A DNA stretch of 62,819 nt, taken from a virus. Taxonomy: Duplodnaviria; Caudoviricetes. The translations under genes were made by a program, and so were the position numbers. Of the stretch, positions 1-30,922 are shown piece by piece. A model generated the notes under the pieces. It was not told where the DNA came from and did no database searches. It worked only from the letters and a program-made list of their open reading frames with translations. The stretch's first letter is position 1, and the number at the start of each line of letters is the position of its first letter. The stretch is taken from positions 1 through 62,819 of IMG/VR virus record IMGVR_UViG_3300025162_000007. One strand, 5' to 3'.

Positions 1-127
1 TGCAAACTAGCTAATGCTGATAGTAAACTATCAAGACTTGAGTACAAGTGTAATCTTTACAATTTACTGTTGTAAGTTTTACAAAACTGACGTGTATGCA
101 AGAAGCATGCCAAGTGCAACAGAAAAA
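1..127. repeat. 127-bp terminal direct repeat (copy 1); circular-assembly overlap
   Basis: Bases 1-127 (tgcaaactag...acagaaaaa) are identical to 62693-62819; 127 is a common assembler k-mer size. Confidence 0.95.
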
Positions 128-157
128 TTATTTTTACGTCGCTGTGAAAAATAAAGC

Positions 158-186
158 TTGACAATTTTTTTGCGTTGTGGTAAGCT
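158..186 (+). promoter_or_regulatory. sigma70-type early promoter
   Basis: TTGACA(158-163)-17 nt-TAAGCT(181-186) with extended -10 TG, upstream of the first + strand ORF. Confidence 0.75.
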
Positions 187-258
187 TGTCCACGTAGCCA
201 AAAAGACTTTCCAGTCTTGACTATCAGGTTACAAAAAAACTAAACAAGAGGTGTTACT

Positions 259-489
259 ATGCAGTTACAGTTAACTAGTAAGTATGATGTTGGTACTAAG
301 CTACAAGTTAAGTACAATGCTACTATCTTTGATGCTGAAGTTGAAGGAGTTAAGTTTGAGCATATTACTAAAGCTAGAGAAGCTGACTGTAGTAGCTATA
401 TATTCTATAGGCTTAAGCTATATGGTATCAAGAAGCCTTATAGTATAATGCTAGATGAACCTAGTCTAGTAAGTAGTATGGTAAACTAA
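259..489 (+). CDS. hypothetical protein (SH3/KOW-like N-terminus; resembles 4153..4443)
   Basis: ORF with GAGG SD; N-terminal LTSKYDVGTK resembles INSKFNLGTK. Confidence 0.7.
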   Translation: MQLQLTSKYDVGTKLQVKYNATIFDAEVEGVKFEHITKAREADCSSYIFYRLKLYGIKKPYSIMLDEPSLVSSMVN

Positions 490-490
490 T

Positions 491-718
491 ATGAAACCTT
501 CGACAGTCAACTATCAACTTAATATAGATATGGCTGGTATAACTAATAAATCAACTTTAGAAATATTACTTGTACACGCTATAAGACTATGTGCTGATAT
601 GATGATTAGTTATCAAGGGATAATAGTTGATAGTAAGAGTGGTGTAATTAGCAAGACAGTTAAAAATGGAAAAGTAAAAAATGAAGTTACATATAAATAT
701 AATTACAGAGTAAACTAG
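491..718 (+). CDS. hypothetical protein
   Basis: 75-aa ORF tightly packed in the early operon. Confidence 0.65.
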   Translation: MKPSTVNYQLNIDMAGITNKSTLEILLVHAIRLCADMMISYQGIIVDSKSGVISKTVKNGKVKNEVTYKYNYRVN

Positions 719-758
719 TATCCTGATGCTAGTTACTATACTGTGGAGGTAAAACAGT

Positions 759-986
759 ATGTCACACGCTAACTTGTTAAGTATGGAGAAAGGTAAAGTA
801 AAGCAGAAAGAAAGGTACAAACGTGTAGTAGAGCGAGCAATGAAACAGTTTAGTCATACTGAGATGAATGACTTTGTTGAGAGGGGCGGTTGCTTTAAAG
901 TTAAAAGATACTTTCACTTACTTGGGTTTAAGAATATAGAAAGTGTAAGAAATAACTTTCTTACTGGAAAGAAAGTAGTTAACTAG
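759..986 (+). CDS. hypothetical basic protein
   Basis: GGAGG SD; 75-aa ORF. Confidence 0.75.
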   Translation: MSHANLLSMEKGKVKQKERYKRVVERAMKQFSHTEMNDFVERGGCFKVKRYFHLLGFKNIESVRNNFLTGKKVVN

Positions 987-988
987 TT

Positions 989-1333
989 ATGTCTACACCA
1001 ATTAGAATTAGATGTAAAGGTATTAAACAAATTAGAAAGATACTTACTAAGCTAACTGAACTTGGTTATAGTACTGATTGGTTTATACAAAACCTTGACT
1101 ATGTAAGTACTTGTACTTCCTTAAGTCTTGATGATGATAATGAAGTAATAGGTGAGGTATGTTGGTGTAATACTAAAGTATGTACTCCAAGATGTAGTGC
1201 TTGGGAAAGCTGTAAAAAGTTTTTATGGCTAGAGTTTGATGAGCTACATAAAATACCTAAAGTTGGTGAAGAGATGGAGTTAACTATATTAGATGAGGTG
1301 AAGTATGATACCACTAAAACTAACTCACTTTAA
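989..1333 (+). CDS. Cys-rich tandem paralog 1 with C-terminal ELTILDEVK motif
   Basis: KLTELGY N-terminal segment, CWC..C..C..C core, shared C-terminal motif. Confidence 0.8.
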   Translation: MSTPIRIRCKGIKQIRKILTKLTELGYSTDWFIQNLDYVSTCTSLSLDDDNEVIGEVCWCNTKVCTPRCSAWESCKKFLWLEFDELHKIPKVGEEMELTILDEVKYDTTKTNSL

Positions 1334-1625
1334 GGTTGATATTACAGAACTTACTCCTGATGAACTTAATAATCTTATACTAAAGATAGAAAAAAATGGT
1401 ATACCTATTAAACCTTACTTCTCTAATACTGTACTACAACGAAATAGTAAACTAATCTGCTGGCATCATACTAAGCAAGCACGTCTTTGTTCTTGTGGTA
1501 CTTTATGTAATGGCTGTTATTCTAAAAAGACATGTTATGCTTATTCAATTCCTTTCCTTACTGTAGAGGACATACTAAAGTATGAGTTAACTTTACTTGA
1601 TGAAATAAGAGGAGAGTTAACATGA
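1305..1625 (+). CDS. Cys-rich tandem paralog 2 with C-terminal ELTLLDEIR motif
   Basis: KIEKNGI segment, CSCGTLCNGC...C core; overlaps neighbouring genes. Confidence 0.8.
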   Translation: MIPLKLTHFKVDITELTPDELNNLILKIEKNGIPIKPYFSNTVLQRNSKLICWHHTKQARLCSCGTLCNGCYSKKTCYAYSIPFLTVEDILKYELTLLDEIRGELT

Positions 1626-1945
1626 AGCATAATACTTTTATTATAAGACTTACTTATTCTGAAGCTAGAGTTACAGTTGAAAAACTAAAAGAACTGGGGT
1701 ATAATGTTGGTAGTTGGTCTAAAGATACTATAGGTTTTATGCAATATGAAACTCCACCATTTACTATTACTGTAAATAGTAATAGATTAGGATGGTGTTC
1801 TAATAGATGTCAAGATAATTGCTTTCACTGTTACGATTATGATAATTGTAAAGTATTCACTTTTAAGGACGTACTTCTAGGTAACCTGCCTAATTTACTT
1901 GATAGTTTTACTATACTAGATGAAGTTAAGGCAGATATGATATGA
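1622..1945 (+). CDS. Cys-rich tandem paralog 3 with C-terminal SFTILDEVK motif
   Basis: KLKELGY segment, WCSNRCQDNCFHC...C core; ATGA overlaps. Confidence 0.8.
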   Translation: MKHNTFIIRLTYSEARVTVEKLKELGYNVGSWSKDTIGFMQYETPPFTITVNSNRLGWCSNRCQDNCFHCYDYDNCKVFTFKDVLLGNLPNLLDSFTILDEVKADMI

Positions 1946-2268
1946 ATATCCAACCACCATATAGTATACTACTAAGTGATGAAGAGGAGAAACTAAAAGT
2001 ATATGCAATACTTAACTCTATGGGAATACACTTTAGTTATCCTGCTAGTCTACAAGATAAGTGTAAACAATTTCATGTCCACCCTGATAATGCTTTAACT
2101 TATTGTACTTATACACATAACCGTGATGACTGTATGAGTATAAGTACGGGTTGTATTGCTGTTTGGTATAAACGAATACTTGCTAAAGTATTCATTGGTG
2201 AAAAAGTACTTAGTATATTAGATGAAATAAAAATGGAGGACAACTATCATGAAAGAAGTTGTAGGTAA
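1942..2268 (+). CDS. Cys-rich tandem paralog 4 with C-terminal VLSILDEIK motif
   Basis: ILNSMGI segment, several Cys/His residues; ATGA overlap. Confidence 0.8.
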   Translation: MNIQPPYSILLSDEEEKLKVYAILNSMGIHFSYPASLQDKCKQFHVHPDNALTYCTYTHNRDDCMSISTGCIAVWYKRILAKVFIGEKVLSILDEIKMEDNYHERSCR

Positions 2269-2503
2269 AGAGTTAATGTCTTTAGAAGAAGTTAATGAAA
2301 GCATACTTACTGAGTTAGACTATCTTGATGTAGCTGAAGAAGCTATTGAAGTACCTGACATTGAGGTACTATCACCTAGAGTACAGGTGATAAAGGACTT
2401 CACACTTAAAAGTGTTGATGAAAAAAAAGCAGTAGTAAGTACTGAGCAGTACAAGAAGTGGACTAAGTTAATAGGTAGTCACAATAAACCTACGTTACTT
2501 TAA
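2249..2503 (+). CDS. hypothetical acidic protein
   Basis: GGAGG SD; 84-aa ORF. Confidence 0.7.
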   Translation: MKEVVGKELMSLEEVNESILTELDYLDVAEEAIEVPDIEVLSPRVQVIKDFTLKSVDEKKAVVSTEQYKKWTKLIGSHNKPTLL

Positions 2504-2543
2504 CTTGAACAAGTTACTAAAAAATAAAAGGAGGACTAAGGGA

Positions 2544-2957
2544 ATGGAAGTAAAAGATTTTTATGGGTTGAGAATTGGGCAGAAGTTAGTTGACAAAAAG
2601 AGTAAAGAGAAAGTTACTATCGTTGGGTTAGGAATGACTGAGGGAAAAGGTGATGCTAAGGGACTATACCTTGATGTACTACCTGATGAAAAGACTAAGT
2701 TAAGTATAGAGTTAGACTGGGAAGATGTATGTAATAAGTATGATAAGGATAAAGTGTTTAAGCGTTACTGGTTGTACGCTTTCAAATCAAAGAGTGCAGA
2801 TAGTTACTACCAAACAAGTAGTAGCTTTGTAGATGAGAATGGATTTAATACTAACGGAAGTAGAAGTTCTTTTAGTGAAGTTAATTGGCGAACAGGATAT
2901 GATTTAATTAAAATAGAGAACTGTTACATAGATGTAGAAGTACCAGAGAAAAAGTAA
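2544..2957 (+). CDS. hypothetical protein
   Basis: Start placed at ATG 2544, downstream of AGGAGG. Confidence 0.7.
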   Translation: MEVKDFYGLRIGQKLVDKKSKEKVTIVGLGMTEGKGDAKGLYLDVLPDEKTKLSIELDWEDVCNKYDKDKVFKRYWLYAFKSKSADSYYQTSSSFVDENGFNTNGSRSSFSEVNWRTGYDLIKIENCYIDVEVPEKK

Positions 2958-3265
2958 TGGCAAGACGTAACAAAGTTAACCTACTAAACCTAGTACACAA
3001 GTTTGAAACTGAGGGTTTAAGCCATAAAGAGTTGATGACTTTGTTTAGTAATTTGGTTAGACAAGATAAGCTTAAAGAAACTGATGACTACTATAGAGAA
3101 GTAGCCACTAACTTAGTAGGCAAGGGTTACTTAACAGCATCAGGTAGTGTAACTCTAAAGGGGATTAAGTTTTATATAGACAAAGATAATCATAACAAGT
3201 GGCAAGTAAAGCGTAACTTAGAAATGGAAAGTATACTACGTAAGGAAGTGCTATGTCAGTCTTAA
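2957..3265 (+). CDS. hypothetical protein (possible winged-helix)
   Basis: TAATG overlap; LVGKGYL...SVTLKG pattern resembles a wHTH wing. Confidence 0.65.
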   Translation: MARRNKVNLLNLVHKFETEGLSHKELMTLFSNLVRQDKLKETDDYYREVATNLVGKGYLTASGSVTLKGIKFYIDKDNHNKWQVKRNLEMESILRKEVLCQS

Positions 3266-3753
3266 ACTACTCACCTAAGTATAAGTTATATAAGGACAGG
3301 TATTCAATAACAGCCTGTACTTACTTTAATCCAGATACTATGATGGCTGAAGATAAGTTTGAACACTTTGTATTTGCTAAAAAGTTTAACGATATACTTG
3401 TAGTTAATGTTGGTGACTTTATTACTAACAGTTGGGTTTCTAAATCTCATTGTAAACGTAGAATTAATGCTTTACTAAGGCTACTACAAGAGAAGTACCC
3501 AAAAGAATATTATAATATGGTAATGATTAGTATGCCATATAACTTAGGTGGTATGAGCGACAATGAGTTAATAAGAACACTTACTAAAATGCGTAACTAC
3601 TGGGAGGGGCTTAGAAGACATGCTAGAAGTAGATGGGATTTCTATAACAATAGATTAACTGACTGTGAGGCAGCACTTAATAGGTTGGCTGTTCTTAAAG
3701 AGGAGGTGAGTATACTTGAAGAAATAAAATCAGAGCTTAGAGCAGTGTGGTAA
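3253..3753 (+). CDS. hypothetical protein with coiled coil and C-terminal EVSILEEIK motif
   Basis: 166-aa ORF; same C-terminal motif as the 989-2268 paralogs but an unrelated body. Confidence 0.75.
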   Translation: MSVLNYSPKYKLYKDRYSITACTYFNPDTMMAEDKFEHFVFAKKFNDILVVNVGDFITNSWVSKSHCKRRINALLRLLQEKYPKEYYNMVMISMPYNLGGMSDNELIRTLTKMRNYWEGLRRHARSRWDFYNNRLTDCEAALNRLAVLKEEVSILEEIKSELRAVW

Positions 3754-3786
3754 GTTACTAACTAATTATTAGGAGGTGGTTAAGTT

Positions 3787-4047
3787 TTGAGTAAACCTAG
3801 AACGTATGTGCTATTGTATGAAGATGAAACAGGTGAGATAAAGTATGCAGATAGAGTTGATGCTAAGTCTTTTGAAGATGCTGAGTTAGTATTTGCTGAC
3901 AAAGAAGAAGAGTTAGAAGACAGAACTCTACCTTACTTTGTATGTGAAGAAGTAAGAAGTATTACTAAAGATGCATATGTAGAAAGTGATGAAGATATGC
4001 TTAATGGTACTGAAGAAGTTGATGATGAAGAAGATATAATAGCATAG
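3787..4047 (+). CDS. highly acidic hypothetical protein
   Basis: AGGAGG SD, TTG start; very E/D-rich. Confidence 0.7.
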   Translation: MSKPRTYVLLYEDETGEIKYADRVDAKSFEDAELVFADKEEELEDRTLPYFVCEEVRSITKDAYVESDEDMLNGTEEVDDEEDIIA

Positions 4048-4152
4048 TAAAAGAGGGTGCTTGTTAGATGAACTGAACTCATAAGGGTTACGGTATCCGA
4101 CCCCAACAGTTAAGTGGATAGCCTACTAAATAAACAAAGGGAGAAAAATGTA

Positions 4153-4443
4153 ATGGAAATTAAAATCAATTCGAAGTTTAACTTGGGAACTAAAGTGTTT
4201 GTTAATGTTAATGATGTAGACAGAGAAGTAGAGTGTGAAACTTGTGGTGGCACTCATACTGTGTCAGGCAGAGATACATTAGAAGGAACTATTGCAACAA
4301 TAGACTTCAGCTTCTTACAGGCAGTAGATGGAAAGCCTTATCAAAGAGTTATCTACTTAGTTAAAACTAAGAAAGGTACACTTGCTAGAAAAGGCGAGAA
4401 CGTTTGGACTAAGAAGTCTGACGCAGTAAATGCACGTAACTAA
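4153..4443 (+). CDS. hypothetical protein with CETCGG (DnaJ-type CxxCxG) motif
   Basis: Start placed at ATG 4153 after GGGAG; SKFNLGTKV N-terminus. Confidence 0.7.
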   Translation: MEIKINSKFNLGTKVFVNVNDVDREVECETCGGTHTVSGRDTLEGTIATIDFSFLQAVDGKPYQRVIYLVKTKKGTLARKGENVWTKKSDAVNARN

Positions 4444-4476
4444 AGTAAGCAACTAAGTACTACATAATTTTCATAA

Positions 4477-4551
4477 AGGTACTGGGGTAGCAAGGTTTAT
4501 TACCTCTTTTCTTTGCTACTCCATACCTCCTATCTAATAATAAACTGGAGG
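4477..4551 (+). promoter_or_regulatory. intergenic stem-loop with anti-SD-like loop upstream of the amidoligase gene
   Basis: AGGTA-c-TGGGGTAGCAAGG / CTTTGCTACTCCA-TACCT stem (with GU pairs); loop TTTATTACCTCTTTT; adjacent CCTCC can pair with GGAGG at 4547-4551. Confidence 0.6.
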
Positions 4552-4566
4552 ATAATCTAAACTAAT

Positions 4567-6360
4567 ATGTACGGATTAACTTTTCTTGCTGCTAAAATAC
4601 TTGGTAAGTTAGATGCTAACCCAAATATAGAAGCAGATAAGTTAAACAAGATATTGCCTGAACTAGAAGTAAGTACTTGTAAAGAAATACTAGTGGCTTA
4701 TACTAGTACAGATAATAAGAAGAAGCAAGCAGAGCAATTAGAAAACATCTTGTATACTATCTTACCTAGATTAACAGAGCATTTATATTATGCTATGTCT
4801 ACCCAAATAAACTGTAGAAATAAAATAAATAAACAACTTGTTAAATCTTGGTGCTTAGATATAGAAGTATCAACTAAACTAGCAATAGAGTTTGATAAGT
4901 ATTTAACTAACACTAATTGTAGTGATAAAGATAAAGAAACACTACTAAGGTTATTTAGTGGGATACTACAAATTGCACTTAACAAAACGTATACGTGTAG
5001 TGAATGTAGTAGTAAAGTATCAGGTAAACCTTTCTTTGTATTTGATAAAGATACAACAGTATGTATGTGTTCAGAGTGTGCTTCTAAAAAGATAAAGTAT
5101 ACTTGTATACACTGTAACAATTCCTTTACATCTAACAATTCTAATCAGACTAAAGATGGTTTAGTTTGTCCTGACTGTATAAAAATATACTATAAAAAGT
5201 GTGAGTACTGTGGTGTATATGAAAAAAATGGATTAGTTAAATCACGAAAAGTTAATGTTGACTTAGGTAATGATGCAGTTAATAAGTTAATATGTGATAC
5301 CTGTGTTAAACTAAAGTTTACTAGTTGCTATAGTTGTGGCTGTCTAATAGAGAACGGCAGAGAAGTTACAACAGATGGTGGAAGACTTTGCCCTAGATGT
5401 GATGTAAGAAAACGCTTATATGGGAGTAGGACTGGGCTTACTACTAAAGTAGTAAAGCTTGGTAACACTTATACTGAGTGTAAAAGTAAACGTATCTTTG
5501 GTGTTGAGATAGAAACTAATATCTTAACAAGAGATAACAACACTGACTGGAGTAAAGTTAATGATGCTAGCATTGCAGCTAGAGAGTTTGTTAGTCCAAA
5601 ACTTAATGGTGATTTAGGTTTTGCTGATATAAAAAAGTTTCTAAGTGAGATAGATGCAACAGTAGATAAAGTTATAGTAAGAGAGATGGATAAAGTATGT
5701 GGACTTCATGTTCATGTTGATGGTAGTGACTTAACTATTGAAGATATAATAAAGTTATATCGAGCAGCTTGTCCACTACAGAATTTATTCTTTTGTCTTG
5801 TTAAGCCTGAACGTAGTAGTTGTAGACACTGTGTATTATTAAGTGATAGGTATGCTAAACTTAAAGATATACATGGCGTAGAGATGATACTATATGGACA
5901 CGGTGGTGAAGATGCAGCTAGAAGAAAGAAAGAAAAGTATAGTGGTGAACGTTATAACTGGCTTAATGTACACAGTTGGTTTTATCGTGGTAGTATAGAA
6001 ATGAGGCAGCATCATGGTACTCTTGACTATGATGAAATAGTTAATTGGATAAGTCTAATGACTTGCTTTGTTGACTGGGTAAAGACTACTTCTATAGAAG
6101 CAATAGATGAAGCTACTCTAAGTATTACTTCAGCTAACTCATTAAAGAATAGGTTAAGTAAGTTCCTAGAATTAGTAGCAAAGTTTAGTAACAAAGACGT
6201 AGCTAACTTTTATGCTGCACAGATTAAAAAGTTTTATGATATAGTTGTACCAAGTTATAATGTACAGCATATAAAAGTAGAAGTAGAAAAGGAACCAGTA
6301 GAGATAGAAGATATAGATGAAGAAGATGATGGGTATGATAATGATGATGATAATAATTAA
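4567..6360 (+). CDS. multi-zinc-finger protein fused to putative amidoligase (COOH-NH2 ligase, Amidoligase_2-like)
   Basis: Eight CxxC motifs, then FGVEIE, DASI..EFVSPKL, CGLHVHVD, RYNWLN, IEMRQHHGTLD; acidic tail. Confidence 0.88.
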   Translation: MYGLTFLAAKILGKLDANPNIEADKLNKILPELEVSTCKEILVAYTSTDNKKKQAEQLENILYTILPRLTEHLYYAMSTQINCRNKINKQLVKSWCLDIEVSTKLAIEFDKYLTNTNCSDKDKETLLRLFSGILQIALNKTYTCSECSSKVSGKPFFVFDKDTTVCMCSECASKKIKYTCIHCNNSFTSNNSNQTKDGLVCPDCIKIYYKKCEYCGVYEKNGLVKSRKVNVDLGNDAVNKLICDTCVKLKFTSCYSCGCLIENGREVTTDGGRLCPRCDVRKRLYGSRTGLTTKVVKLGNTYTECKSKRIFGVEIETNILTRDNNTDWSKVNDASIAAREFVSPKLNGDLGFADIKKFLSEIDATVDKVIVREMDKVCGLHVHVDGSDLTIEDIIKLYRAACPLQNLFFCLVKPERSSCRHCVLLSDRYAKLKDIHGVEMILYGHGGEDAARRKKEKYSGERYNWLNVHSWFYRGSIEMRQHHGTLDYDEIVNWISLMTCFVDWVKTTSIEAIDEATLSITSANSLKNRLSKFLELVAKFSNKDVANFYAAQIKKFYDIVVPSYNVQHIKVEVEKEPVEIEDIDEEDDGYDNDDDNN

Positions 6361-6422
6361 ACTAAAGCTTTCACTAAGTACAGTAAAAGAATTAGAAATA
6401 CTAAAGGAGGTATTATAGAATA

Positions 6423-7631
6423 ATGTGTGGGATATTTGGAGCAGTAGGTAAGTATAGTCCTAATGATATAAGGTTACTTGCACTACTGAACATGAGTAGA
6501 GGAACAGATGCCACTGGATTTTACAATGGTAAGAAGTTACTTAAGGAAGCAGTAGATGCTAAAGACTTCTTACGTGACCACAGAGATTACTTTCTAGATA
6601 AGACACAGTATATTATGGGGCATACTAGACTTGGTACTCATGGTAGTAAACTTAAAGATGAAAATGCCCACCCGTTTATTGTAGGTACTATAACTGGAAC
6701 TCATAATGGTATGATTAATAATACCAAAGAGTTAAAAGAAAAGCATGGTGTAGACTATAAAGTAGATAGCCAATATATATTCTACTTACTTAACACTGGG
6801 ATTGATAAGTTAAATGAATTGTGGGGATACTATTGTCTTGCATATGTTGATAGTAAAAAACCTAAAGAGTTTAACTTACTTAAACACGATGGGCAATTAA
6901 GTATAGTTGAGTCTAATGGTGTACTATACTACTCCTCTAATGGTGATGATTTGTTTACGGTATTTGGAAAGCAAGCTAAAGTAAAAGACGTACCTACTGA
7001 TACTAAGTTGACTATAGATATAGATACACTAAAGATATACTCTACTAAGTTAATAGGACTTAACGGTAGATTTAAAGCTGGTACTACTTGTTGTGGTGAA
7101 ACTTATACTACTACTAAGACAGGAACTGGTAGGCATGGTGATAGCATTTATAACTTTAGAGATGATGAAGAGGATAGAGGAGGATACTGTGAAAGTGATT
7201 ATGACTATGAGAAAAGTCCTTATGGTTATTATTTTCATGGAGTGTTTCACCCTTATGCTAACACAGTATGGGATACTAATACTAAACGCTATACTAACTC
7301 AGTAATAGATAAAGAATTAAAAGCTATAGAAGCTGAAGCTAGTGTTGCTGAAAAGAAAGAAGAAGCTAAAGAAGCAGAGAAAGAAATAAAAAGAAACTTA
7401 AGTAGTGACTGTACAATTTGTGGTAGTCCTAGATTTATACAGGACTTAACTTTTATAGCGTGTGATGAAGGCTGGGGCAAGGCTGAGATGTGTGGTGAGT
7501 GCTGGGCTAAGTACATACGTGCAGGGTATAGTATAAGTGGTATGCTATTTAGTAGAGATAATGAAGTACCTATCGTAAAGAAAGTACCGCTTAAAATAGT
7601 AGGTGGTAAGTCTATTTGGGACGGTAAGTAG
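6423..7631 (+). CDS. class II (Ntn) glutamine amidotransferase with C-terminal extension/Zn ribbon
   Basis: N-terminal MCGIFG, RGTDATG, GHTRLGTHG, NAHPF, HNGMI, VDS; C-terminal CTIC...CGEC. Confidence 0.92.
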   Translation: MCGIFGAVGKYSPNDIRLLALLNMSRGTDATGFYNGKKLLKEAVDAKDFLRDHRDYFLDKTQYIMGHTRLGTHGSKLKDENAHPFIVGTITGTHNGMINNTKELKEKHGVDYKVDSQYIFYLLNTGIDKLNELWGYYCLAYVDSKKPKEFNLLKHDGQLSIVESNGVLYYSSNGDDLFTVFGKQAKVKDVPTDTKLTIDIDTLKIYSTKLIGLNGRFKAGTTCCGETYTTTKTGTGRHGDSIYNFRDDEEDRGGYCESDYDYEKSPYGYYFHGVFHPYANTVWDTNTKRYTNSVIDKELKAIEAEASVAEKKEEAKEAEKEIKRNLSSDCTICGSPRFIQDLTFIACDEGWGKAEMCGECWAKYIRAGYSISGMLFSRDNEVPIVKKVPLKIVGGKSIWDGK

Positions 7632-7632
7632 T

Positions 7633-7827
7633 ATGAGTAAAGATAAGCCAACTAATATCTTTGAATGCGAACACTATACTATTCCTTTACCAACTGCATT
7701 ACTTGTAGATGAAAAAGATAAATGGGAAGTATGCCTACAATATAGTCAAGTACAAGGACAACCAAGCTATGTTACAGGAGTATACATAAGTAAGCCTAGT
7801 GAGGAACAGTTCTATGGAGGTGCATAA
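7633..7827 (+). CDS. hypothetical protein
   Basis: ATG immediately after the GATase stop codon. Confidence 0.55.
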   Translation: MSKDKPTNIFECEHYTIPLPTALLVDEKDKWEVCLQYSQVQGQPSYVTGVYISKPSEEQFYGGA

Positions 7828-8118
7828 TTGACAGTTAACTATAGTGAAGGACTGAAGAACCTAGTTAAGTACAGAACAATAGAGAACGCTGACATGATAG
7901 GTAGTGTAACTGATGATGAGTTTTGCAATGAAGTAGCTTCTAGATGTATTGAAGAAGTTAAGATGTTTGATAAAGACTTCTATACTTTCTGTATAGATAT
8001 AGCTAGAAGCATGAGCAAAGACTTAAAGGAAGCCTATGAGTTTAATGATGTTAAGAGTGCTGAGAAGTTTCTTAATGATAAGTATGGTAAGAAGATTAAA
8101 GTAGTAAAGGAGAATTAA
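7828..8118 (+). CDS. hypothetical protein
   Basis: GGAGG SD, TTG start. Confidence 0.7.
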   Translation: MTVNYSEGLKNLVKYRTIENADMIGSVTDDEFCNEVASRCIEEVKMFDKDFYTFCIDIARSMSKDLKEAYEFNDVKSAEKFLNDKYGKKIKVVKEN

Positions 8119-8120
8119 TT

Positions 8121-8291
8121 GTGATAACTAAAAATAAATCTAATCTAACTAAAAAAAGATTACTTGCTATTAATATACTTGAAACTATAGCTAGTATGTT
8201 AGGTGACGAAACTATCTTTGACTGTAAAGATGATGATGATAAGTGGTACAAGTTTGAAGATGCCGTTACTAAACTAATAGAGGAGGATTAA
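8121..8291 (+). CDS. small hypothetical protein (56 aa, not in ORF track)
   Basis: AAGGAG SD, GTG start, MITKNKSNLTKKRLLAINILETIASMLGDETIFDCKDDDDKWYKFEDAVTKLIEED; fills the intergenic gap exactly. Confidence 0.6.
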   Translation: MITKNKSNLTKKRLLAINILETIASMLGDETIFDCKDDDDKWYKFEDAVTKLIEED

Positions 8292-8294
8292 CTT

Positions 8295-8561
8295 ATGATG
8301 ATACATGGTGTTGTATGCCCCAACTGTAAAGACTTTATATATAGCAGAACAAGACACGACTTTAGGACTTGCACTTGTGGTGATACCTCTATTGATGGTG
8401 GACAGACTGACTATATAAAGCTAAGTGCTAAAAACATGAAGGATATACAACACTTAACTATGGAGATAAAGACTACACTTGGAAAACTTTATGATGACTG
8501 GAACTTAAAATTAGATAAACTAGGACTTATACCTACTAAGACTATCAAAAGGGGAACTTGA
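8295..8561 (+). CDS. conserved phage Zn-ribbon protein
   Basis: CPNCKDFIYSRTRHDFRTCTCGDTSIDGG matches a widespread phage family pattern. Confidence 0.8.
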   Translation: MMIHGVVCPNCKDFIYSRTRHDFRTCTCGDTSIDGGQTDYIKLSAKNMKDIQHLTMEIKTTLGKLYDDWNLKLDKLGLIPTKTIKRGT

Positions 8562-8854
8562 CAATGGTTACAAAGTGTGATACTATGAGTAGTGCAAGAC
8601 GTTTACTTAGGTGTAACTTGTATGACTTGATGCTAGAGATAGAAGACTTAATAGCGGACAACTTATCTGTCATTAGTAATGATGATAAGATAAAGTTACG
8701 TGCTGCTAATAGTCTACTAGCCAATGTATATGAGAGGCATACTGTAAAGTTAGATGCTAAGTTTAACAAAGAGAATAATATAGAGAGGTTTAAGTATGAT
8801 GAAAGCAAAGGTTTTATTAGACAGGGTATTAGTAAAGAAGGAAGTGGAGAGTAA
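8558..8854 (+). CDS. hypothetical protein
   Basis: 98-aa ORF overlapping its neighbours. Confidence 0.6.
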   Translation: MTMVTKCDTMSSARRLLRCNLYDLMLEIEDLIADNLSVISNDDKIKLRAANSLLANVYERHTVKLDAKFNKENNIERFKYDESKGFIRQGISKEGSGE

Positions 8855-9071
8855 GACTACTAGTGGTGGTATCATTATACCTGATACTATCAGAAGTAAT
8901 AACTTTATTAAGGCTACTGTTATCACTTGTGGTAAAGATATACATGACATAATAGCTGGAGAAGTATTACTTATTACTAAGAATACTGGTATAGATATTT
9001 CAGTAGGAGAAGATACCCTTACCATACTTAGAGAAGGTGAAATACTTTGTAAGTTATATGAGGAGGAATAG
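8796..9071 (+). CDS. groES: co-chaperonin GroES (Cpn10)
   Basis: LLDRVLVK, KTTSGGIIIPD mobile loop, TILREGEILC. Confidence 0.92.
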   Translation: MMKAKVLLDRVLVKKEVESKTTSGGIIIPDTIRSNNFIKATVITCGKDIHDIIAGEVLLITKNTGIDISVGEDTLTILREGEILCKLYEEE

Positions 9072-9072
9072 T

Positions 9073-9465
9073 ATGCCAACAACACACTTTAGTACGGAAT
9101 ATGCACAGTACTTAGAAGAACATAGATGTATTTATGAACAGATACGACGTAACCGTCAACAGATGCCGGAAGTACGTTACTTACGTAGTGGTATAAATAT
9201 ACAACAACAATATGAAGCTAGTAGTGGCAGGGGTATGCCAATACAACATGCTGCTGTTGAATTACTTAACCCATTTGTAACTATAGAAGGAACAGATTAT
9301 GTAATAGTAAAAGGAGTTAAGGTAAAGAAGGAAGAGATGTCGTTACTTCAAGAGTTAGTATATACTAATGAGTATAGAGAGCCATCTAAATTAGCTACTC
9401 AACAATTTAATATAGAGGAATTAGAAAGAATATATCAAGAAGTAATTAGAGTAAGACGTAGATGA
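9073..9465 (+). CDS. hypothetical protein containing an EEMSLLQELV motif variant
   Basis: ATG 9073 after AGGAGG. Confidence 0.7.
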   Translation: MPTTHFSTEYAQYLEEHRCIYEQIRRNRQQMPEVRYLRSGINIQQQYEASSGRGMPIQHAAVELLNPFVTIEGTDYVIVKGVKVKKEEMSLLQELVYTNEYREPSKLATQQFNIEELERIYQEVIRVRRR

Positions 9466-9659
9466 CAGTAAAGAGAAGTGAACTAATACTAACAATAGTT
9501 AAGTATATAAGGAAGAGAATGGAGTGGGATAACACTACTCCATTATCTTCTATTATATATAGCGAAGTCAATAAGCATGGTAGAAACAGTCAGACTAATC
9601 GCTTTAATAACAATTTACTTAAAGAGGTAAAGGCATACTTTAAAGATGAACTCAAGTGA
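9462..9659 (+). CDS. hypothetical protein
   Basis: ATGA overlap; 65 aa. Confidence 0.6.
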   Translation: MTVKRSELILTIVKYIRKRMEWDNTTPLSSIIYSEVNKHGRNSQTNRFNNNLLKEVKAYFKDELK

Positions 9660-11301
9660 ACGCACAATTATAGACTACACTGGTTTGTACTACATAGTAC
9701 AGTTACCAATAGGCACACCTCTAGCTTGGAAGCACAACTGTATACTTAGAGAGTACATAAAGTCATGTACTTCAAAGTACACTTGGGCTGAAAGACTAAA
9801 GTATAACGGGGACAGTAAGTTATGGACTACTGAGTTACCTAACTATAAAGTTATAGTAGACTTACTAGCATATCTTAGAGATAATCACTTGCCTTTCTTT
9901 GCTACTGATAAGTTGATTACTAAGATTACTGAGCTAGAAAACTATGATGCTAGAGGTAAACTTAATACTATAGAGTTAAAAGCAGAGAATATCAAGGGTA
10001 TAAAATTACCCTTAAGAAATTACCAATATACAGCAGTAAAGTTTCTAGAAGATGCTGGTGGTAAAGCTATCATTGCATTAGGTACTGGTGTAGGAAAGAC
10101 ACTTGTGGCACTTAGTTACTGTATAAAGAATAACAAGAAGGCTATTATAATATGCCCCTCTCAAGGTGGCAAGACAAAGCGAAGCTGGGCGTATGAAGTA
10201 TATAAGTGTACAGACAAGCAACCGCTAATTATATGGAGCGGTAGTAAACTAGATTTGGTACAGTACTGTAATGCTGACTTCATCATAGTTAACTATGAGT
10301 TATTAGATAAGTTTCGTGGATTACTACTTAACTTGATAAATCTACATGGTTTTGATACAGTAATAATAGATGAAAGTCACTCAATAAAAAACTTGAAAGC
10401 TAAACGTACTAGTAGTATACATGAGTTAAGTATGAACTGTACTGGAAGAATACTACTAAGTGCTACTGCTATACGTAATAAACCTGATGAGATATACAGT
10501 CAGTTAAATCTAGTTGCACCTGAGAGGTTTAATAATAAACGTAACTTTAAAGAAAAGTATTATGGCAAGCGTATGTTTCAAGGTAACAAGTTCTTCTATA
10601 CTAGACAGAGTAAGATACAACTTACTAACCTTAACCTTGATATACAAGGGTGCTACTTCTATCGTGATAAGATGAAGATAGTATTTGAGTTACCCTCTCT
10701 AATGATAGAAACTATTTACTATGACTTACCTACTAAAATAAGAAGTACACTTGAGGTACAGAATAAGCAACAACAGTTTCAAACACTTGCTCATGCTATG
10801 ATACCTAATACTGTTAAGCTAGTAGAGAAGTTATTGTTAGATGAAGATAATAAAAAGATAATACTATACTCAGGGTTTGTTGCTGTAGTAGAGGAGTTAA
10901 CTAAGCGACTAGGTAAACTTGCTACACTAAATCATGGTAGACTAACAAGTACTGAGCAACAGGATAACTTTAAAAGTTTTGTAGAGGATAGTAAGACTAG
11001 AGTAATAGTTGCAACCTACCAGTCACTGAGTGAGTCTATTAACTTACAGGAACAAAGTAGTATAGTAGTATTTAATGATACCCCATACCTTACTGCTCAG
11101 ATAGAACAAGCATATGGTAGAGTATATAGAATAGGACAGAAGGATACTTGCTACTGTTATCTTCAAGGCTTTAGTGATACTTATACTGATGAAGTATTTA
11201 CTATCATAGAGAATAAAGATATCATACTTAAGAAAGTATTAGAAGGTAAAGACAAGGAAGGTAGCTTTTGTAATCAAGTAATAAAACCAAAGGATTGCTA
11301 A
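9646..11301 (+). CDS. SNF2-family (SF2) helicase/translocase
   Basis: LRNYQ (Q motif), GTGVGKT, IIDESH, LLSATAIRN, ESINLQ, QAYGRVYRIGQ. Confidence 0.93.
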   Translation: MNSSERTIIDYTGLYYIVQLPIGTPLAWKHNCILREYIKSCTSKYTWAERLKYNGDSKLWTTELPNYKVIVDLLAYLRDNHLPFFATDKLITKITELENYDARGKLNTIELKAENIKGIKLPLRNYQYTAVKFLEDAGGKAIIALGTGVGKTLVALSYCIKNNKKAIIICPSQGGKTKRSWAYEVYKCTDKQPLIIWSGSKLDLVQYCNADFIIVNYELLDKFRGLLLNLINLHGFDTVIIDESHSIKNLKAKRTSSIHELSMNCTGRILLSATAIRNKPDEIYSQLNLVAPERFNNKRNFKEKYYGKRMFQGNKFFYTRQSKIQLTNLNLDIQGCYFYRDKMKIVFELPSLMIETIYYDLPTKIRSTLEVQNKQQQFQTLAHAMIPNTVKLVEKLLLDEDNKKIILYSGFVAVVEELTKRLGKLATLNHGRLTSTEQQDNFKSFVEDSKTRVIVATYQSLSESINLQEQSSIVVFNDTPYLTAQIEQAYGRVYRIGQKDTCYCYLQGFSDTYTDEVFTIIENKDIILKKVLEGKDKEGSFCNQVIKPKDC

Positions 11302-11330
11302 GGCAATCATTTATACTAAAGGAGGATTAA

Positions 11331-12092
11331 ATGGATATACAAAAAGAGTTTGAAAAGTGGTGGGGAGAAAATAAAAAAAGTTATCTCCAATGGGCAGATG
11401 AAGTAAATGCAAAACAAACAGGGAAAAAGGCTTTCCAAGCTGGTGCTGAACTTATGTCTGACGAGCTATCAAAGTCTAACACTAGAATAGTAGAACTAGA
11501 GGCAGTAGTCAGTAGCCAAGCGAATGAGATAGAGAAGTTAAAAGAGAATATAATTAAACTTGGAGCTAGAATAGTAGAGGGTAATTTTAAGACATCAGAC
11601 CTACAACAAAGGCTGGATAAAGCAGTAGAAATACTAAAAGACGGTGAACACAAAGCCCCTACTTGTAGAGTTATTAAAGCACTAGAAGTTTTAGAGGCTA
11701 ATCCATTGAATACAAGTCAGGTAGGAACGACGACTTCTGCGAACTCGGTTAAGAGCTGTGTTTCCTGTATACACGATAATGACAGTGACAGTGAGCAATT
11801 ACTCCCTATATGTGAGGCTTGTGTTAATGATTGGGTAATAGAATATGTTAACTGGAAACCAATTCCAAGTCAGGTAGAGAGTAAGGACCAACTACTAACT
11901 ACTAATGAAAGTAGTAGCAAAGTAGTAGAAAAGAGTTGTGATAATTGTGCAACAGACCCTTGCTCTAAACCACAAGACAGAAGATGTAAAGAGTGTTCTT
12001 ATAGCAGAGAAAGAAATATATCTATGGACGGTGATACTTTTTATAAAGATAATTGGACAGCGTCAATAGAGAGTAAAGAGGTAGAGAAATGA
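11331..12092 (+). CDS. coiled-coil protein with two duplicated Cys-rich modules
   Basis: AAGGAGG SD; KSCVSC...CEAC...NW and KSCDNC...CKEC...NW. Confidence 0.75.
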   Translation: MDIQKEFEKWWGENKKSYLQWADEVNAKQTGKKAFQAGAELMSDELSKSNTRIVELEAVVSSQANEIEKLKENIIKLGARIVEGNFKTSDLQQRLDKAVEILKDGEHKAPTCRVIKALEVLEANPLNTSQVGTTTSANSVKSCVSCIHDNDSDSEQLLPICEACVNDWVIEYVNWKPIPSQVESKDQLLTTNESSSKVVEKSCDNCATDPCSKPQDRRCKECSYSRERNISMDGDTFYKDNWTASIESKEVEK

Positions 12093-12376
12093 AAATAATT
12101 AAATGGAAAGCAAAATGGTTTAAAAACTTAAGTTTACTTTATAAAGATAATAACTTAATAACAACGGTAGATAACTTAACTAGTTGTAATCCTAGTAGGG
12201 TATTTATTAATCCTAAAGATGCTACTAAACTACATAATATATTACATAAAGAGTTTAAAAAGGATTACCCTTACTTAAGTAAACATAATATACAAAGTAG
12301 TGTTGCTGCATACTTACTCAATCTTGAACCTGTTAATACTAAAGGAATAACGAAAGGATGGATACTAATAATATGA
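12089..12376 (+). CDS. hypothetical protein
   Basis: ATGA overlap, GAGG SD. Confidence 0.65.
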   Translation: MKIIKWKAKWFKNLSLLYKDNNLITTVDNLTSCNPSRVFINPKDATKLHNILHKEFKKDYPYLSKHNIQSSVAAYLLNLEPVNTKGITKGWILII

Positions 12377-12867
12377 TATGGTTTACAAGTGATACTCACT
12401 TTGGACACAGTAACATAATAGGTTATTGTCAACGTGAGTATAGTGATGTAGTAGAAATGAATGAAGATATAATCCGTAAATGGAATAGTAAAATACAGGA
12501 AGGTGATACTGTATATCACTTAGGTGACTTTGGGTTTGGTAACTCACACTTTATTAAGACTTGTTATGATAGGTTAAAGGGAAAGAAGATATTACTTAAA
12601 GGTAATCACGATAAGAAGAACTTAAAGATACTTCCATTCTTAAGTGATAGTATATTAGTTGTACACTATGATAGATATTTACTAGTACTGTGTCACTATC
12701 CTATGTTAAGTTGGCCTCATATGGCATATGGTAGTATTCACTTACATGGGCATACCCATAGAGAAACTCCTACCGATACTAAACTTAATAGATTTAATGT
12801 ATGTGTTGAGAATAATAGGTTTTATCCAGTAAGTATAGAAGAAATACTGGCACAATATAACAAATAA
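12358..12867 (+). CDS. calcineurin-like metallophosphoesterase
   Basis: SDTHFGH, LGDF, GNHD, CHYP, HGHTH motifs. Confidence 0.93.
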   Translation: MDTNNMIWFTSDTHFGHSNIIGYCQREYSDVVEMNEDIIRKWNSKIQEGDTVYHLGDFGFGNSHFIKTCYDRLKGKKILLKGNHDKKNLKILPFLSDSILVVHYDRYLLVLCHYPMLSWPHMAYGSIHLHGHTHRETPTDTKLNRFNVCVENNRFYPVSIEEILAQYNK

Positions 12868-12902: not shown

Positions 12903-13394
12903 CTATATTATTTTATCACACAGTCCTAACTCTAATGCTTGGGCAGCAGTTAACCACACTTCAGGTTTACCCTTAATTAATTTACGCCAAAATGTCACAG
13001 ACTTTTTACTATTGTCTGCTAGTATTCTATAGTACTGTTCATCAAACTTACGTACTTGTTTAATCCAATCTTCCATTTCTGACATATCCATTTCATCAGT
13101 CACCTGTAGTTGACTTTCATGTATCATTAGCCATGCGTCTTTTTCCATGTGTCGCTTATCCCCACACACAAACATAGCAACTGCCTCTGAACATACGTGT
13201 CCAAAGGCAACTGTTGTTATTGGAACCTTACATAATCTTACTCTACCAGAGAAAGCAAGTCCTGCACCTATGTCCCCACCATCACTACTAATGTGTAGTC
13301 TTATAGGTTCACCTATCTTTTCTAACTGATTCATAATAGCATCAAACTCGCCAAACTTATTATCTACTTCTGACGCAAAAGTGAACTGCTGCAT
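12903..13394 (-). CDS. clpP: ClpP-like (S14) peptidase
   Basis: ISSDGGD, VCSEAV (Ser), LMIHE (His), EVWLTAAQALELGLCDKI. Confidence 0.88.
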   Translation of the reverse strand: MQQFTFASEVDNKFGEFDAIMNQLEKIGEPIRLHISSDGGDIGAGLAFSGRVRLCKVPITTVAFGHVCSEAVAMFVCGDKRHMEKDAWLMIHESQLQVTDEMDMSEMEDWIKQVRKFDEQYYRILADNSKKSVTFWRKLIKGKPEVWLTAAQALELGLCDKII

Positions 13395-15467: not shown

Positions 15468-17315
15468 TCAATCCACTTCATTTTGTTTATACCTTTTTCT
15501 TTGTCCTGCTTCTTTTTGTCTAGCCTTCCCCCATACACTACGAGGACGTAGATAACCAACAATACGTTCCCATATCTCAACTTGTGCATCACAACAAGGA
15601 CTAGTTTTAAATATTCCTACAACATTTTCACCACACTTAGTACATCTTGATATACCATAGTTAATTGCTTGGTAAATAACTCCTTGTTTAGCACTATATT
15701 CTATAAGTCTTTTCATCTGTTTAGCTGATGTAAGTGTTTCATCTAAATTAATATGGAGTATCCCTCCTCCTTGAGTAAGTTTATCTAATTTACCTTGTAC
15801 TTTTATTCTGTCTTTTATATCTGCGTTAACTGAAAGAGGAAGATATTGATTACTTAATATTTCATACTTAGTATTAAACTTAAAGTTGGTTTTGTTCGCT
15901 AAAGTAACTCCTAATGATTCAGCAGGTACTTGTTCTAGATTAAACATAACTTTAGTAAAAGTATGTGTATCAGTATTCCATTTATTTATAGTATTAAGTA
16001 TTTTTGCAGCTAACTCAGTACCTTCTTTAGTTACTATATCTGAACCTAATACTTCTATTGCTTCATTAAGTCCTACAAATCCTATAGTACAGAATTGTCT
16101 ATCAAGTGAAGCCCAACCTTTACTATATAATGGATGTTTTCCTGCTGATACAGCTACCTCTAGCATACGCCTGTGAGCTACTAATATATCTACAGCTAAA
16201 TCATAAGTATGTTTTAATTTATTAAAAAAATCTACATCATCTCTAGCTTCAAGTGCTGCCATTACTAGATTAAGTACTACGACACGAGTGCTGCCAACAG
16301 AAATAGAAGGGTTGCCAAGAGTAGAAGAAAATAATTTGGTGTCACTAATAAGACGACAACAACTACTAAGATTTCCAATATCCCCAGTATAGATGTTGAA
16401 TGTTCCACGTTTATAATTGACTTCAGACAACCAATTAAGAAACTCCTCATCTTGTATCTTATCTTCCTTTTTGTACATAGAAGCAGTTAACACTGGAAAA
16501 GTAAGTAACTGTTCAGTTTCATTCATTTTTATAAAGTGCTCGCTAAACCATTGCTGTAGTTTATTAACGCCTTTTAAGTCTACCTTACTACCATCAGGAT
16601 ATGTAACATGACTAAATAAATCTTTCATAAAGTATTTATCATATATGGTTAAGTTAACAAATGCTGATTGACTGGCACGAAATGGAAAGTTAAAGCTGTA
16701 TACTAACTTCTGAAATAATTGCTCTACTTCTTCAGTAGCTTCTGCATAATAATTAACTCCATAATCATTTCTTAAGTACCAGTCTAAGTATATAAATAAA
16801 TCTCCATAACTTACTGCACCTGCTTGAGAGTTGCTAATGTATGCTGTTGTCTGTATTAGTATATCAATAAATGACTGAGCGTGTTTTGGGGGTTTTACTT
16901 TAAGCCCTACAATAAAAGGCATTCCTTCAAAAACCAGTGGTTGTAAACTATAACTATAACAGTAACTACTAAACCAACGTGTTAAGTCACAAACATATAA
17001 GTTACCTTCTTTAATAGCGGTATAGTGTTGTACTCCAATTTGATTACGAATGTAATCATAAGCTGCTTTCTTAAACATTGCTTTTGGTGCTTCACTATAG
17101 TAACTTATAACGGAAGTATCTACTACATTTGCATTATCGTCTATGGTCTGATGACTTGTTACTGCTGTTCCTATAAACTTATCATAGTATTTTAATCCAT
17201 CTACCTTATCTTCTGTTAAACCATCTGTTGTTTTATAAAACATTTCCCTTCTAAATCTCTGTGCTTCTGTTAAAAATGCTACGTTACGTGTCTTTACTTC
17301 TACCACTTTATCCAT
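15468..17315 (-). CDS. nrdD: anaerobic (class III) ribonucleoside-triphosphate reductase
   Basis: SQAGAV, LSSCCRL, EQVPAES, CTKC...CC Zn site, RIVGYL glycyl-radical motif; no obvious ATP cone. Confidence 0.95.
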   Translation of the reverse strand: MDKVVEVKTRNVAFLTEAQRFRREMFYKTTDGLTEDKVDGLKYYDKFIGTAVTSHQTIDDNANVVDTSVISYYSEAPKAMFKKAAYDYIRNQIGVQHYTAIKEGNLYVCDLTRWFSSYCYSYSLQPLVFEGMPFIVGLKVKPPKHAQSFIDILIQTTAYISNSQAGAVSYGDLFIYLDWYLRNDYGVNYYAEATEEVEQLFQKLVYSFNFPFRASQSAFVNLTIYDKYFMKDLFSHVTYPDGSKVDLKGVNKLQQWFSEHFIKMNETEQLLTFPVLTASMYKKEDKIQDEEFLNWLSEVNYKRGTFNIYTGDIGNLSSCCRLISDTKLFSSTLGNPSISVGSTRVVVLNLVMAALEARDDVDFFNKLKHTYDLAVDILVAHRRMLEVAVSAGKHPLYSKGWASLDRQFCTIGFVGLNEAIEVLGSDIVTKEGTELAAKILNTINKWNTDTHTFTKVMFNLEQVPAESLGVTLANKTNFKFNTKYEILSNQYLPLSVNADIKDRIKVQGKLDKLTQGGGILHINLDETLTSAKQMKRLIEYSAKQGVIYQAINYGISRCTKCGENVVGIFKTSPCCDAQVEIWERIVGYLRPRSVWGKARQKEAGQRKRYKQNEVD

Positions 17316-30295: not shown

Positions 30296-30922
30296 TTATA
30301 GAACTGAAGTAGCTGCTGTTTCTGCTGCTACTCCTGCTGGCCCTGTTACTAATCCAGCTCCAAGTTTTCCTAGCCCACCAAGTAAGCTACCCCAAAATCC
30401 CCAACCACTATTAAGTTTATTTTTATAAGTCATTAACTCTTTCTGGTCAGCATATGCTTTATCAGCTAGAGCATTCTGCCATTCTCTGTTCTTCTGTTTC
30501 TGTGCCATATCATATGTAAACTGTTTTATTCTGTCATCTAAATCCTGGTTTCCTCTATTTGCCTGGTATACATCTTGATTTAATCCTAGTGCACCTTTAG
30601 TATAATTTTCTACATTACCCATTTGCTCAGCATTCTGTTTAGTAGCTAAGTCTGTATAGGTACTAGCAACTGGAGCCATTATACCAGATAATGTATTCGT
30701 TGTCAAGCGATTGCCAGCACTACCTATCTGTCCATTTCTAGGCATGCTGTTATAAGCAGTTGCAAGTTTTGCTGCCCCAGCATTGTTTATAGCATCTGTA
30801 GTTGCAGTATCTTGTAATCCATATAAACTTGGATTATTTGATGCTTGATAATACTGCCTAAGTTTATTAGTTGCCATATCATAAACATCTTTTGGGTTAC
30901 CATAACCTAAATTAATTGCCAT
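30296..30922 (-). CDS. putative pilot/ejection protein (paralog of 30935..31657)
   Basis: MAINLGYGNP...LRQYY; C-terminal glycine zipper SGWGFWGSLLGGLG. Confidence 0.65.
   Translation of the reverse strand: MAINLGYGNPKDVYDMATNKLRQYYQASNNPSLYGLQDTATTDAINNAGAAKLATAYNSMPRNGQIGSAGNRLTTNTLSGIMAPVASTYTDLATKQNAEQMGNVENYTKGALGLNQDVYQANRGNQDLDDRIKQFTYDMAQKQKNREWQNALADKAYADQKELMTYKNKLNSGWGFWGSLLGGLGKLGAGLVTGPAGVAAETAATSVL

Follow-up and report, generated by a model that had tools for sequence, protein, structure and literature searches.

A short near-C-terminal motif common to five small proteins at the left end of a freshwater phage genome

Why would five small proteins, most of whose bodies have no recognisable similarity to one another, finish in nearly the same short peptide? 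The question is raised by the genome of an uncultured freshwater phage (IMG/VR record IMGVR_UViG_3300025162_000007), a complete virus record of 62,819 bases with an exact 127-bp direct terminal repeat, which was analysed over its whole length (the window). At the left end of this genome, between positions 989 and 3753, one tightly packed and largely overlapping string of genes encodes five proteins, here called O1 to O5, for which an annotation made from the letters of the DNA, the original prediction, had proposed a shared C-terminal tag docking different effector domains on one hub. The five nonapeptides were recovered at the positions, and with the residues and codons, that this prediction had given. 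The open reading frames (ORFs) that carry them, and those in between, are the following.

989..1333, + strand: O1, Cys-rich ORFan of 114 residues (from the ORF list), motif-bearing protein 1; nonapeptide ELTILDEVK at 1277-1303, core TILDEVK at 1283..1303, 9 residues after the core
1305..1625, + strand: O2, Cys-rich ORFan of 106 residues (from the ORF list), motif-bearing protein 2; nonapeptide ELTLLDEIR at 1584-1610, core TLLDEIR at 1590..1610, 4 residues after the core
1622..1945, + strand: O3, Cys-rich ORFan of 107 residues (from the ORF list), motif-bearing protein 3; nonapeptide SFTILDEVK at 1904-1930, core TILDEVK at 1910..1930, 4 residues after the core
1942..2268, + strand: O4, ORFan of 108 residues (from the ORF list), motif-bearing protein 4; nonapeptide VLSILDEIK at 2206-2232, core SILDEIK at 2212..2232, 11 residues after the core
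2249..3265, + strand: three motif-less ORFs of 84, 150 and 102 residues between O4 and O5
3253..3753, + strand: O5, ORFan of 166 residues with an unrelated, mainly helical body, motif-bearing protein 5; nonapeptide EVSILEEIK at 3703-3729, core SILEEIK at 3709..3729, 7 residues after the core

Occurrence and position of the motif

When the 62,819 bases are translated in all six frames, the core of the motif, [ST]-[ILV]-L-[DE]-E-[IV]-[KR], is matched exactly five times, always on the + strand and always 4-11 residues ahead of a stop codon (9, 4, 4, 11 and 7 residues from O1 to O5). This recurrence is not random. In a de novo scan of all reduced-alphabet 7-mers in the 86 proteins of the phage, made with no prior motif and preferred to raw BLOSUM sums, which are dominated by Cys/Trp/Tyr-rich windows, the motif is the top hit, with 5 proteins for 0.064 expected (Poisson 8e-9), and none of 500 shuffled proteomes held any 7-mer as extreme. 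The supposed significance and terminal placement of the motif are therefore borne out: it ranks first and it is always 4-11 residues from the C-terminus.

The fifth copy was also scored with a profile built from the first four copies only. It reaches 26.5, against 19.0 for the runner-up window in the proteome; when the other 79 proteins were shuffled 1000 times, 26.5 was attained anywhere in 9 of the shuffles. In real sequence, 26.5 is attained at none of 422,927 positions, which comprise 274,848 ORF positions from 98 unrelated viral loci, chosen beforehand for LDE[IV][KR], and 148,079 six-frame positions in four amidoligase-bearing phages. With the same profile, the weaker internal copy that had been reported at 9334-9360 (EMSLLQELV) scores 16.0, 14th among all windows, and has to be regarded as noise; outside O1-O5, neither the core search nor the profile scan found the motif in any protein of the phage, and this covers the virion proteins as well. 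A text search of the literature, which did not cover supplementary tables, found none of six motif strings in any paper.

A scan of viral contigs with a spaced two-motif DNA pattern matched 98 stretches, in 12 of which both copies lie at most 15 codons from a stop. In 7 of these 12 one copy has fewer than five open codons upstream, and among the remaining five, which were inspected, only one stretch (L096) is a tandem array. This 32.8-kb phage record, which lacks an amidoligase, presents on its reverse strand (~8633-10316) four ORFs of roughly 80-110 residues, with Ala/Ser/Trp/Arg-rich repeats and similar C-terminal peptides: EMI[LM]EALDEIK directly followed by the stop twice, EALDETR once and IEIILEEVKNENY once. 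Small phage genes in tandem that share a conserved C-terminus of the LDE/LEE-[IV]-K type thus occur a second time here; as a relative the array was rejected, since it belongs to an unrelated Ala/Trp-repeat family. The only match of a stricter pattern in metagenome contigs, with no more than two ORFs of at least 40 residues in 3.2 kb, was taken as chance.

Dissimilar carriers and conservation at the protein level

The bodies of the five proteins were compared in pairs after removal of the motif and the three residues preceding it, with 300 shuffles. The resemblance is clear between O1 and O3 (z 4.7, 0 of 300 shuffles; BLAST 27% over 99 residues, E 0.001), marginal between O2 and O3 (z 2.7, 6 of 300 shuffles) and absent between O1 and O2 (z 1.0). 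No similarity of the O4 body to O1-O3 was detected (z≤0.2), and the body of O5 resembles none of the other four in this comparison. With hhalign, the O1-O3 profile aligns to O4 over only 14 columns, all of them in the motif region, and the alignment to O5 is likewise restricted to the C-terminal 16-23 columns, again the motif region; the all-against-all BLAST gives O4 no match to O1-O3 or O5 at E≤1. The agreement between O2 and O5 extends over about 15 residues (BLAST 50% over 16 residues, E 0.18). Of the original picture of one family of four proteins with an outlier as the fifth, the outlier stands, the unrelated body of the 3253..3753 protein being confirmed by both hhalign and the body comparison; by body similarity the family contracts to O1 and O3, with O2 marginal and O4 unlike.

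O1-O4 have in common a length of 106-114 residues, their tandem order, overlapping stops and starts and a Cys-rich centre. Their four-way alignment holds six invariant columns, three of which are the L-D-E of the motif, and two aligned invariant Cys, the motif following the last conserved Cys at a variable distance, about 19-27 residues as read from the alignment. A very old common descent of these four proteins is possible. The motif is nevertheless the most constrained element of its carriers and not a mere family signature, because, once it is taken away, clear similarity is left between the bodies of O1 and O3 only. As far as can be judged from their sequences, the carrier bodies are unrelated or have diverged beyond recognition, and the motif behaves, as had been anticipated, as a portable or separately constrained element.

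The searches for relatives returned essentially the genome itself. The O1-O4 profile gave four matches among 405 candidates from 5.8 billion clustered proteins, and four in a full HMMER search of 1.84 billion representatives, all of them the genome's own; O5 alone gave one match among 58 candidates and O4 alone one among 7, each its own. Scans of viral contigs with the O1-O4 alignment (27 pattern matches), with the amidoligase discussed below (145 pattern matches) and with the SNF2 helicase (15) provided no confirmed relative, and nothing was found by megablast of positions 1-12000 against phage records, nor, above threshold, by comparison of O1-O5 with PHROGs and Pfam. In the PDB sequence search the O1-O4 profile had 0 matches and O5 only two (E 0.47 and 1.1), and the ESM Atlas offered no named relative, the best feature score being 0.81 (O3) and O5 having no usable match.

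What is conserved is the peptide and not the DNA. The invariant Leu is encoded by TTA, CTT, CTA, TTA and CTT in O1 to O5, with differences at positions 1 and 3 of the codon, and synonymous choices are also seen for Glu (GAG/GAA), Lys (AAG/AAA) and Val (GTG/GTT). The synonymous variation on which the original prediction relied is thus real, and its choices fit the codon bias of the genome. The codons that are repeated from copy to copy are expected from the genome anyway, because this bias favours ATA (66% of Ile), ACT (50-67% of Thr) and GAT (73% of Asp).

The Shine-Dalgarno sequence of the next gene does not explain the motif either, its offset from the motif being different in each gene. In O1 it lies inside the motif, whose last codons, GAG GTG, double as the Shine-Dalgarno of O2 (ATG at 1305). 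In O2 it comes just past the motif and in O4 5 nucleotides past it; in O3 it is located at the last motif codon. The motif of O5 is separated by 57 nucleotides from the following start codon, and an AGGAGG of its own serves that start. Downstream of the motif the residues vary freely, and it is largely the initiation region of the next gene that determines them; the stops of O2 and O3 overlap the starts of O3 and O4, respectively (ATGA in both cases).

Natural variants point in the same direction. The runs in which the DNA of this phage occurs are freshwater or lake metagenomes, and the five runs listed include no RNA data. In one of them, X1, a low-depth contig of 151 nucleotides matches 2179-2222 in O4 apart from two differences and diverges beyond that point; the frame, followed further, encodes E-E-I-K and five unrelated residues before it ends at a stop that overlaps an ATG. 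Compared with the GAT GAA ATA AAA of the window, it displays three synonymous changes and one change of D to E, the same substitution as in O5, and so alters 4 of 12 motif bases and yet keeps the peptide. A second X1 contig, of 381 nucleotides, has a different upstream sequence and aligns over 2203-2237 only, and the motif region of O4 is the sole stretch of 900-3800 matched by both diverged contigs. In another run, X3, a variant contig covering part of the O1 body (1076-1223) contains an in-frame 3-base insertion after 1128 and changes of O1 codons 51, 56 (all three bases) and 61, all non-synonymous; a protein with the motif thus varies in its body between strains. This evidence is anecdotal, because it consists of single contigs at depth 2-3 and X1 is possibly the source of the phage DNA; within that limit, the retention of the motif in a diverged X1 contig counts against its being absent from homologues. 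Together, the variation of the Leu, Glu, Lys and Val codons and the synonymous changes of the variant contig place the conservation at the protein level.

Possible roles of the motif

Could the motif be a short, probably helical recognition element that docks O1-O5 on one common partner or on each other? This is the interpretation that we tentatively prefer, and we would place it close to, and rather below, an even judgement. The motif would be kept by selection on the protein, and the otherwise dissimilar O1-O5 would bind the same site non-covalently through it. That site would be located on a common partner, of host or phage origin, or on the proteins themselves, in which case the motif would serve as a shared assembly helix. 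In O5, the motif is confidently predicted to be helical: the single-sequence AlphaFold2 model contains a long helix over residues 103-165 (63 residues), with a predicted local distance difference test (pLDDT) of about 89-94 over 141-166. For O1-O4, helicity is what we infer, as are the exposure of the motif and the docking itself. With Foldseek, neither PDB nor BFVD yielded a match to the O5 model at E≤0.001, and a complex prediction of O5 residues 100-166 with O2, made without controls, scored 0.00, which speaks neither for nor against binding.

The ORFs situated between O4 and O5, in 2249-3265, are candidate partners of the motif proteins; their starts and stops overlap or abut, and that of 102 residues has a sub-threshold match to DUF7417. 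Translational coupling over 989-3753 and the lack of any + strand terminator-like site found between these positions would weakly favour co-production of all these proteins, an arrangement that is common in phage operons.

Several observations weigh against docking through the motif. No partner was found for it. The AlphaFold2 model of O1, built from the four-sequence alignment, has a pLDDT of 47; only its N-terminal beta-alpha-beta-beta part (elements in residues 5-57) is modestly supported, and its C-terminal half, at about 32-33, is too poor to be used for the motif, which in O1-O4 may be either exposed or packed. In helical hydrophobic moment the five motifs do not stand out, ranking between the 41st and the 77th percentile of all 11-residue windows of the proteome, and the amphipathic helix of the original prediction is not borne out, a confident helix prediction being obtained for O5 only. 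The evidence comes from one genome and two low-depth contigs of a possible source run, with no orthologous series. Furthermore, O1-O4 are alike in size, tandem position and Cys-rich centre, and their four copies of the motif may therefore be a structural helix conserved since a common ancestor.

This last point belongs to the likeliest of the alternatives, although we consider it, too, unlikely: the motif would be no more than a structural part of an old family of paralogues, O1-O4 being tandem duplicates whose last helix is the slowest to evolve, and the match of O5 would be coincidental, by chance or convergence in a coiled-coil-like helix rich in E, K, L and I. The two aligned invariant Cys and the demonstrable relationship of O1 and O3 agree with it, as does the position of the O5 motif within a 63-residue predicted helix, where such residues are common; moreover, the BLAST match of O2 and O5 reaches only E 0.18 in a small proteome. 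It has to contend with an O4 body unlike those of O1-O3 and a marginal O2. The coincidence in O5 would also have to be a rare one, given the 9 of 1000 shuffles and the absence of its score from the real phage positions, including loci pre-selected for LDE[IV][KR], and it would have to fall within 7 residues of the C-terminus and to extend, in the agreement with O2, over about 15 residues and not 7.

Two of the other alternatives involve genes further along the genome, for which the Pfam scans, covering 35 of the 86 ORFs, gave the following features.

4567-6360, + strand: Amidoligase_2 (PF12224), E 4.5e-19, sole family listed at E≤0.001
6423-7631, + strand: glutamine amidotransferase, GATase_6, E 5.8e-12
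8796-9071, + strand: GroES/Cpn10 homologue, PF00166, E 1.3e-11
9646-11301: SNF2 helicase
12903-13394, - strand: ClpP-family protease, E 1.2e-18
15468-17315, - strand: anaerobic ribonucleotide reductase NrdD, E 2e-94
59711-60061, + strand: S-adenosylmethionine decarboxylase, PF02675, E 4.3e-20

The Zn-finger amidoligase and the glutamine amidotransferase were candidate hubs in the original prediction. The enzyme pair would read the motif as a recognition sequence and covalently modify a nearby side chain, for example that of the invariant Glu. The two genes lie 0.8-2.7 kb downstream on the same strand, and the motif offers, besides this Glu, a conserved Ser/Thr and a Lys/Arg. Co-occurrence, on the other hand, is lacking: with the motif profile, a window above 21.0 is present in 0 of the 4 other amidoligase-bearing phages scanned, and none of the 5 viral records in which LDE[IV][KR] pairs lie close to the ends of genes has an amidoligase. 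In phage LUZ24 the amidoligase/amidotransferase pair is found beside RimK-like and gamma-glutamyl cyclotransferase genes, with the motif absent. The present phage encodes an S-adenosylmethionine decarboxylase. Taken with the LUZ24 neighbours, this enzyme makes polyamine or gamma-glutamyl small-molecule chemistry at least as likely, and its presence hints that the enzyme pair works on such molecules and not on proteins. PMC3517423 names amidoligase and glutamine amidotransferase genes.

The Pup-like form of this proposal fares no better. Pup, as presented in PMC3511204, is a disordered protein of 60-70 residues that ends in GGQ or GGE and is ligated through that terminus, and its ligase PafA is related to carboxylate-amine ligases. 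O1-O5 have 106-166 residues and end in ...TNSL, ...GELT, ...ADMI, ...RSCR and ...RAVW, with no Gly-Gly-Gln/Glu, and none has a Pfam Pup match at E≤10, a negative to be read with the fact that HMMER filters can drop weak matches. A precursor of ribosomally synthesised and post-translationally modified peptides (RiPPs) would be matched loosely, by a conserved segment joined to variable, Cys-rich, tandem bodies, although in proteins of 106-166 residues, and no RiPP recognition element (RRE) or PqqD-type family was detected in the 35 scanned ORFs, the other 51 being outside the scans. On balance we judge covalent modification of O1-O5 through the motif to be quite improbable.

The enzymes have features of their own. 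The amidoligase domain spans only residues about 332-499 of 597, after a region with many CxxC and before an acidic D/E/N tail, and the amidotransferase possesses a C-terminal CxxC...CxxC segment. Phage amidoligases matched by tblastn align to residues about 285-536 only, and the Zn-finger-like N-terminal part therefore seems particular to this phage.

A comparably small probability is given to the motif as a turnover, processing or sorting signal, by which early proteins would be degraded or cleaved at a set time, for example by a host unfoldase with the phage ClpP-like protease, or delivered to a compartment. The phage does encode a ClpP-family protein, the L-x-E of the core resembles the cleavage consensus of the T4 prohead protease, and the capsid-targeting sequence of T4 is a precedent for a terminal peptide common to unrelated phage proteins. 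However, classical C-terminal degrons sit at the extreme C-terminus and need a free terminus, and the motif is never found there: it is followed by 9, 4, 4, 11 and 7 unconserved residues, the last of which varies freely (L, T, I, R, W). ClpP itself reads no degrons, its gene here is about 9 kb away on the opposite strand, and virion proteins are without the motif. The hubs named in the original prediction, ClpP among them, find no support in these results.

The motif as a nucleic-acid signal at gene junctions (Shine-Dalgarno or translational coupling, promoter, RNA structure or recombination site), to which the endings of the O1-O4 motifs 1-16 nucleotides ahead of the next start, the GAGGTG that serves O2 and the -10-box-like TATATT or TATACT of the T/S-I-L codons had lent some appeal, is largely refuted and highly improbable in view of the shifting Shine-Dalgarno offset and the distant fifth copy, the three codons of the invariant Leu, the natural variant, the number of promoter-like sites (55 for 53.6 expected, no enrichment) and the lack of any Rfam family match.

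In the boldest form of the recognition reading, which we consider improbable, the motif would be a portable address tag, undescribed in phages, routing at least five early proteins to a single reader, be it the amidoligase/amidotransferase pair, a protease or one host machine. If so, takeover proteins would be under tag-based control, through modification, timed removal or co-localisation, and the tag could be moved by recombination; if the reader were the enzyme pair, a substrate would be at hand for two genes whose joint occurrence is widespread in phages and has no explanation so far. Short peptides by which unrelated proteins are all directed to one machine are familiar from cells and eukaryotic viruses; in phages few have been documented. 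Early ORFan genes are the least understood part of phage genomes, and a motif that has outlasted the divergence of its carriers is an unusually clean handle on five of them, which probably act on or through the same partner; it is also a simple bait peptide for a partner search. Coming from one uncultured freshwater phage without orthologues, it is a lead and not a system.

Genome context and comparison with known systems

On the + strand, small genes fill two arms, one at about 259-12867 and the other beginning at 57839 and reaching the right end, and the - strand between these two arms carries the replication and virion genes; a family-A DNA polymerase and a P22-like portal were also detected with Pfam. 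The designation of O1-O5 as early is retained as a presumption from position and orientation only, namely the + strand just inside the 127-bp repeat, as in LUZ24. No tRNAs were found in the genome, and GTTAAC near gene junctions is not enriched (30 for 25.5 expected). The GroES ORF was missed by the greedy gene caller because it overlaps both neighbouring long ORFs. The presence of NrdD in a lake-water phage suggests a host that lives without oxygen at least at times; NrdD was uninformative on the identity of that host, with a single weak match to a Clostridia metagenome-assembled genome (33% over 63 residues).

Immediately upstream of O1, the ORFs 259-489, 491-718 and 759-986 are all of 75-76 residues and all end in Val-Asn-stop (...SMVN, ...YRVN, ...KVVN), and similarity among their bodies was not seen in the all-against-all BLAST; these ends may be due to chance or may be a second tiny shared terminus. 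Elsewhere, the - strand contains three paralogue pairs in which the motif is absent: 47373-48440 / 48455-49192 (55% identity over 121 residues, E 4e-40), 54703-55320 / 56176-56844 (32% over 175 residues, E 2e-11) and 30296-30922 / 30935-31657 (24% over 200 residues, E 4e-8).

In its architecture the phage recalls the LUZ24-like podoviruses (Bruynoghevirus): both have terminal repeats, small genes on the + strand fill the left arm ahead of the amidoligase and glutamine amidotransferase genes, and the virion genes of the right arm lie on the - strand. The large terminase is only a distant match, all 235 terminase matches being below 60% identity, and the kinship is remote; moreover, LUZ24 has no window above 18.75 with the motif profile, and O1-O5 are without relatives anywhere.

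How, then, does the motif compare with known tags? As with Pup and PafA, a ligase-type enzyme is at hand, the amidoligase gene of the phage being near the motif genes, and we take this enzyme to belong to the same broad glutamine-synthetase-like group as PafA. It differs in that its match is to Amidoligase_2, with no Pup-ligase family listed at E≤0.001.

The ssrA-type tags and the ClpX-binding tail of SspB are likewise short terminal peptides, which route different proteins to one AAA+ machine. These tags are situated at the extreme C-terminus and are non-polar or basic, whereas the phage motif is internal to the last 20 residues and acidic. The C-terminal peptide of SSB, and the tails of T7 gp2.5 and gp4 that act on T7 DNA polymerase, are acidic C-terminal tails that dock several proteins, and they resemble the present case in that unrelated proteins have a similar short acidic C-terminal element for one shared or contested site. 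They form the extreme terminus itself, their last residue is hydrophobic or aromatic, and its free carboxylate matters; the phage motif, in contrast, is followed by 4-11 variable residues, is of mixed hydrophobic and acidic composition and is probably helical.

Finally, the T4 capsid-targeting sequence is an N-terminal peptide of late, virion-packaged proteins that is removed by the prohead protease. Like the motif described here, it is a short portable peptide on unrelated phage proteins, with an L/I-x-E element, and one phage machine is its reader; the present motif differs in being C-terminal, in belonging to a presumed early operon of the + strand left arm and in being found on no virion protein. 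The concept of a shared tag has, in any case, its precedents in the capsid-targeting sequence of T4 and in the tails of SSB and T7 gp2.5.

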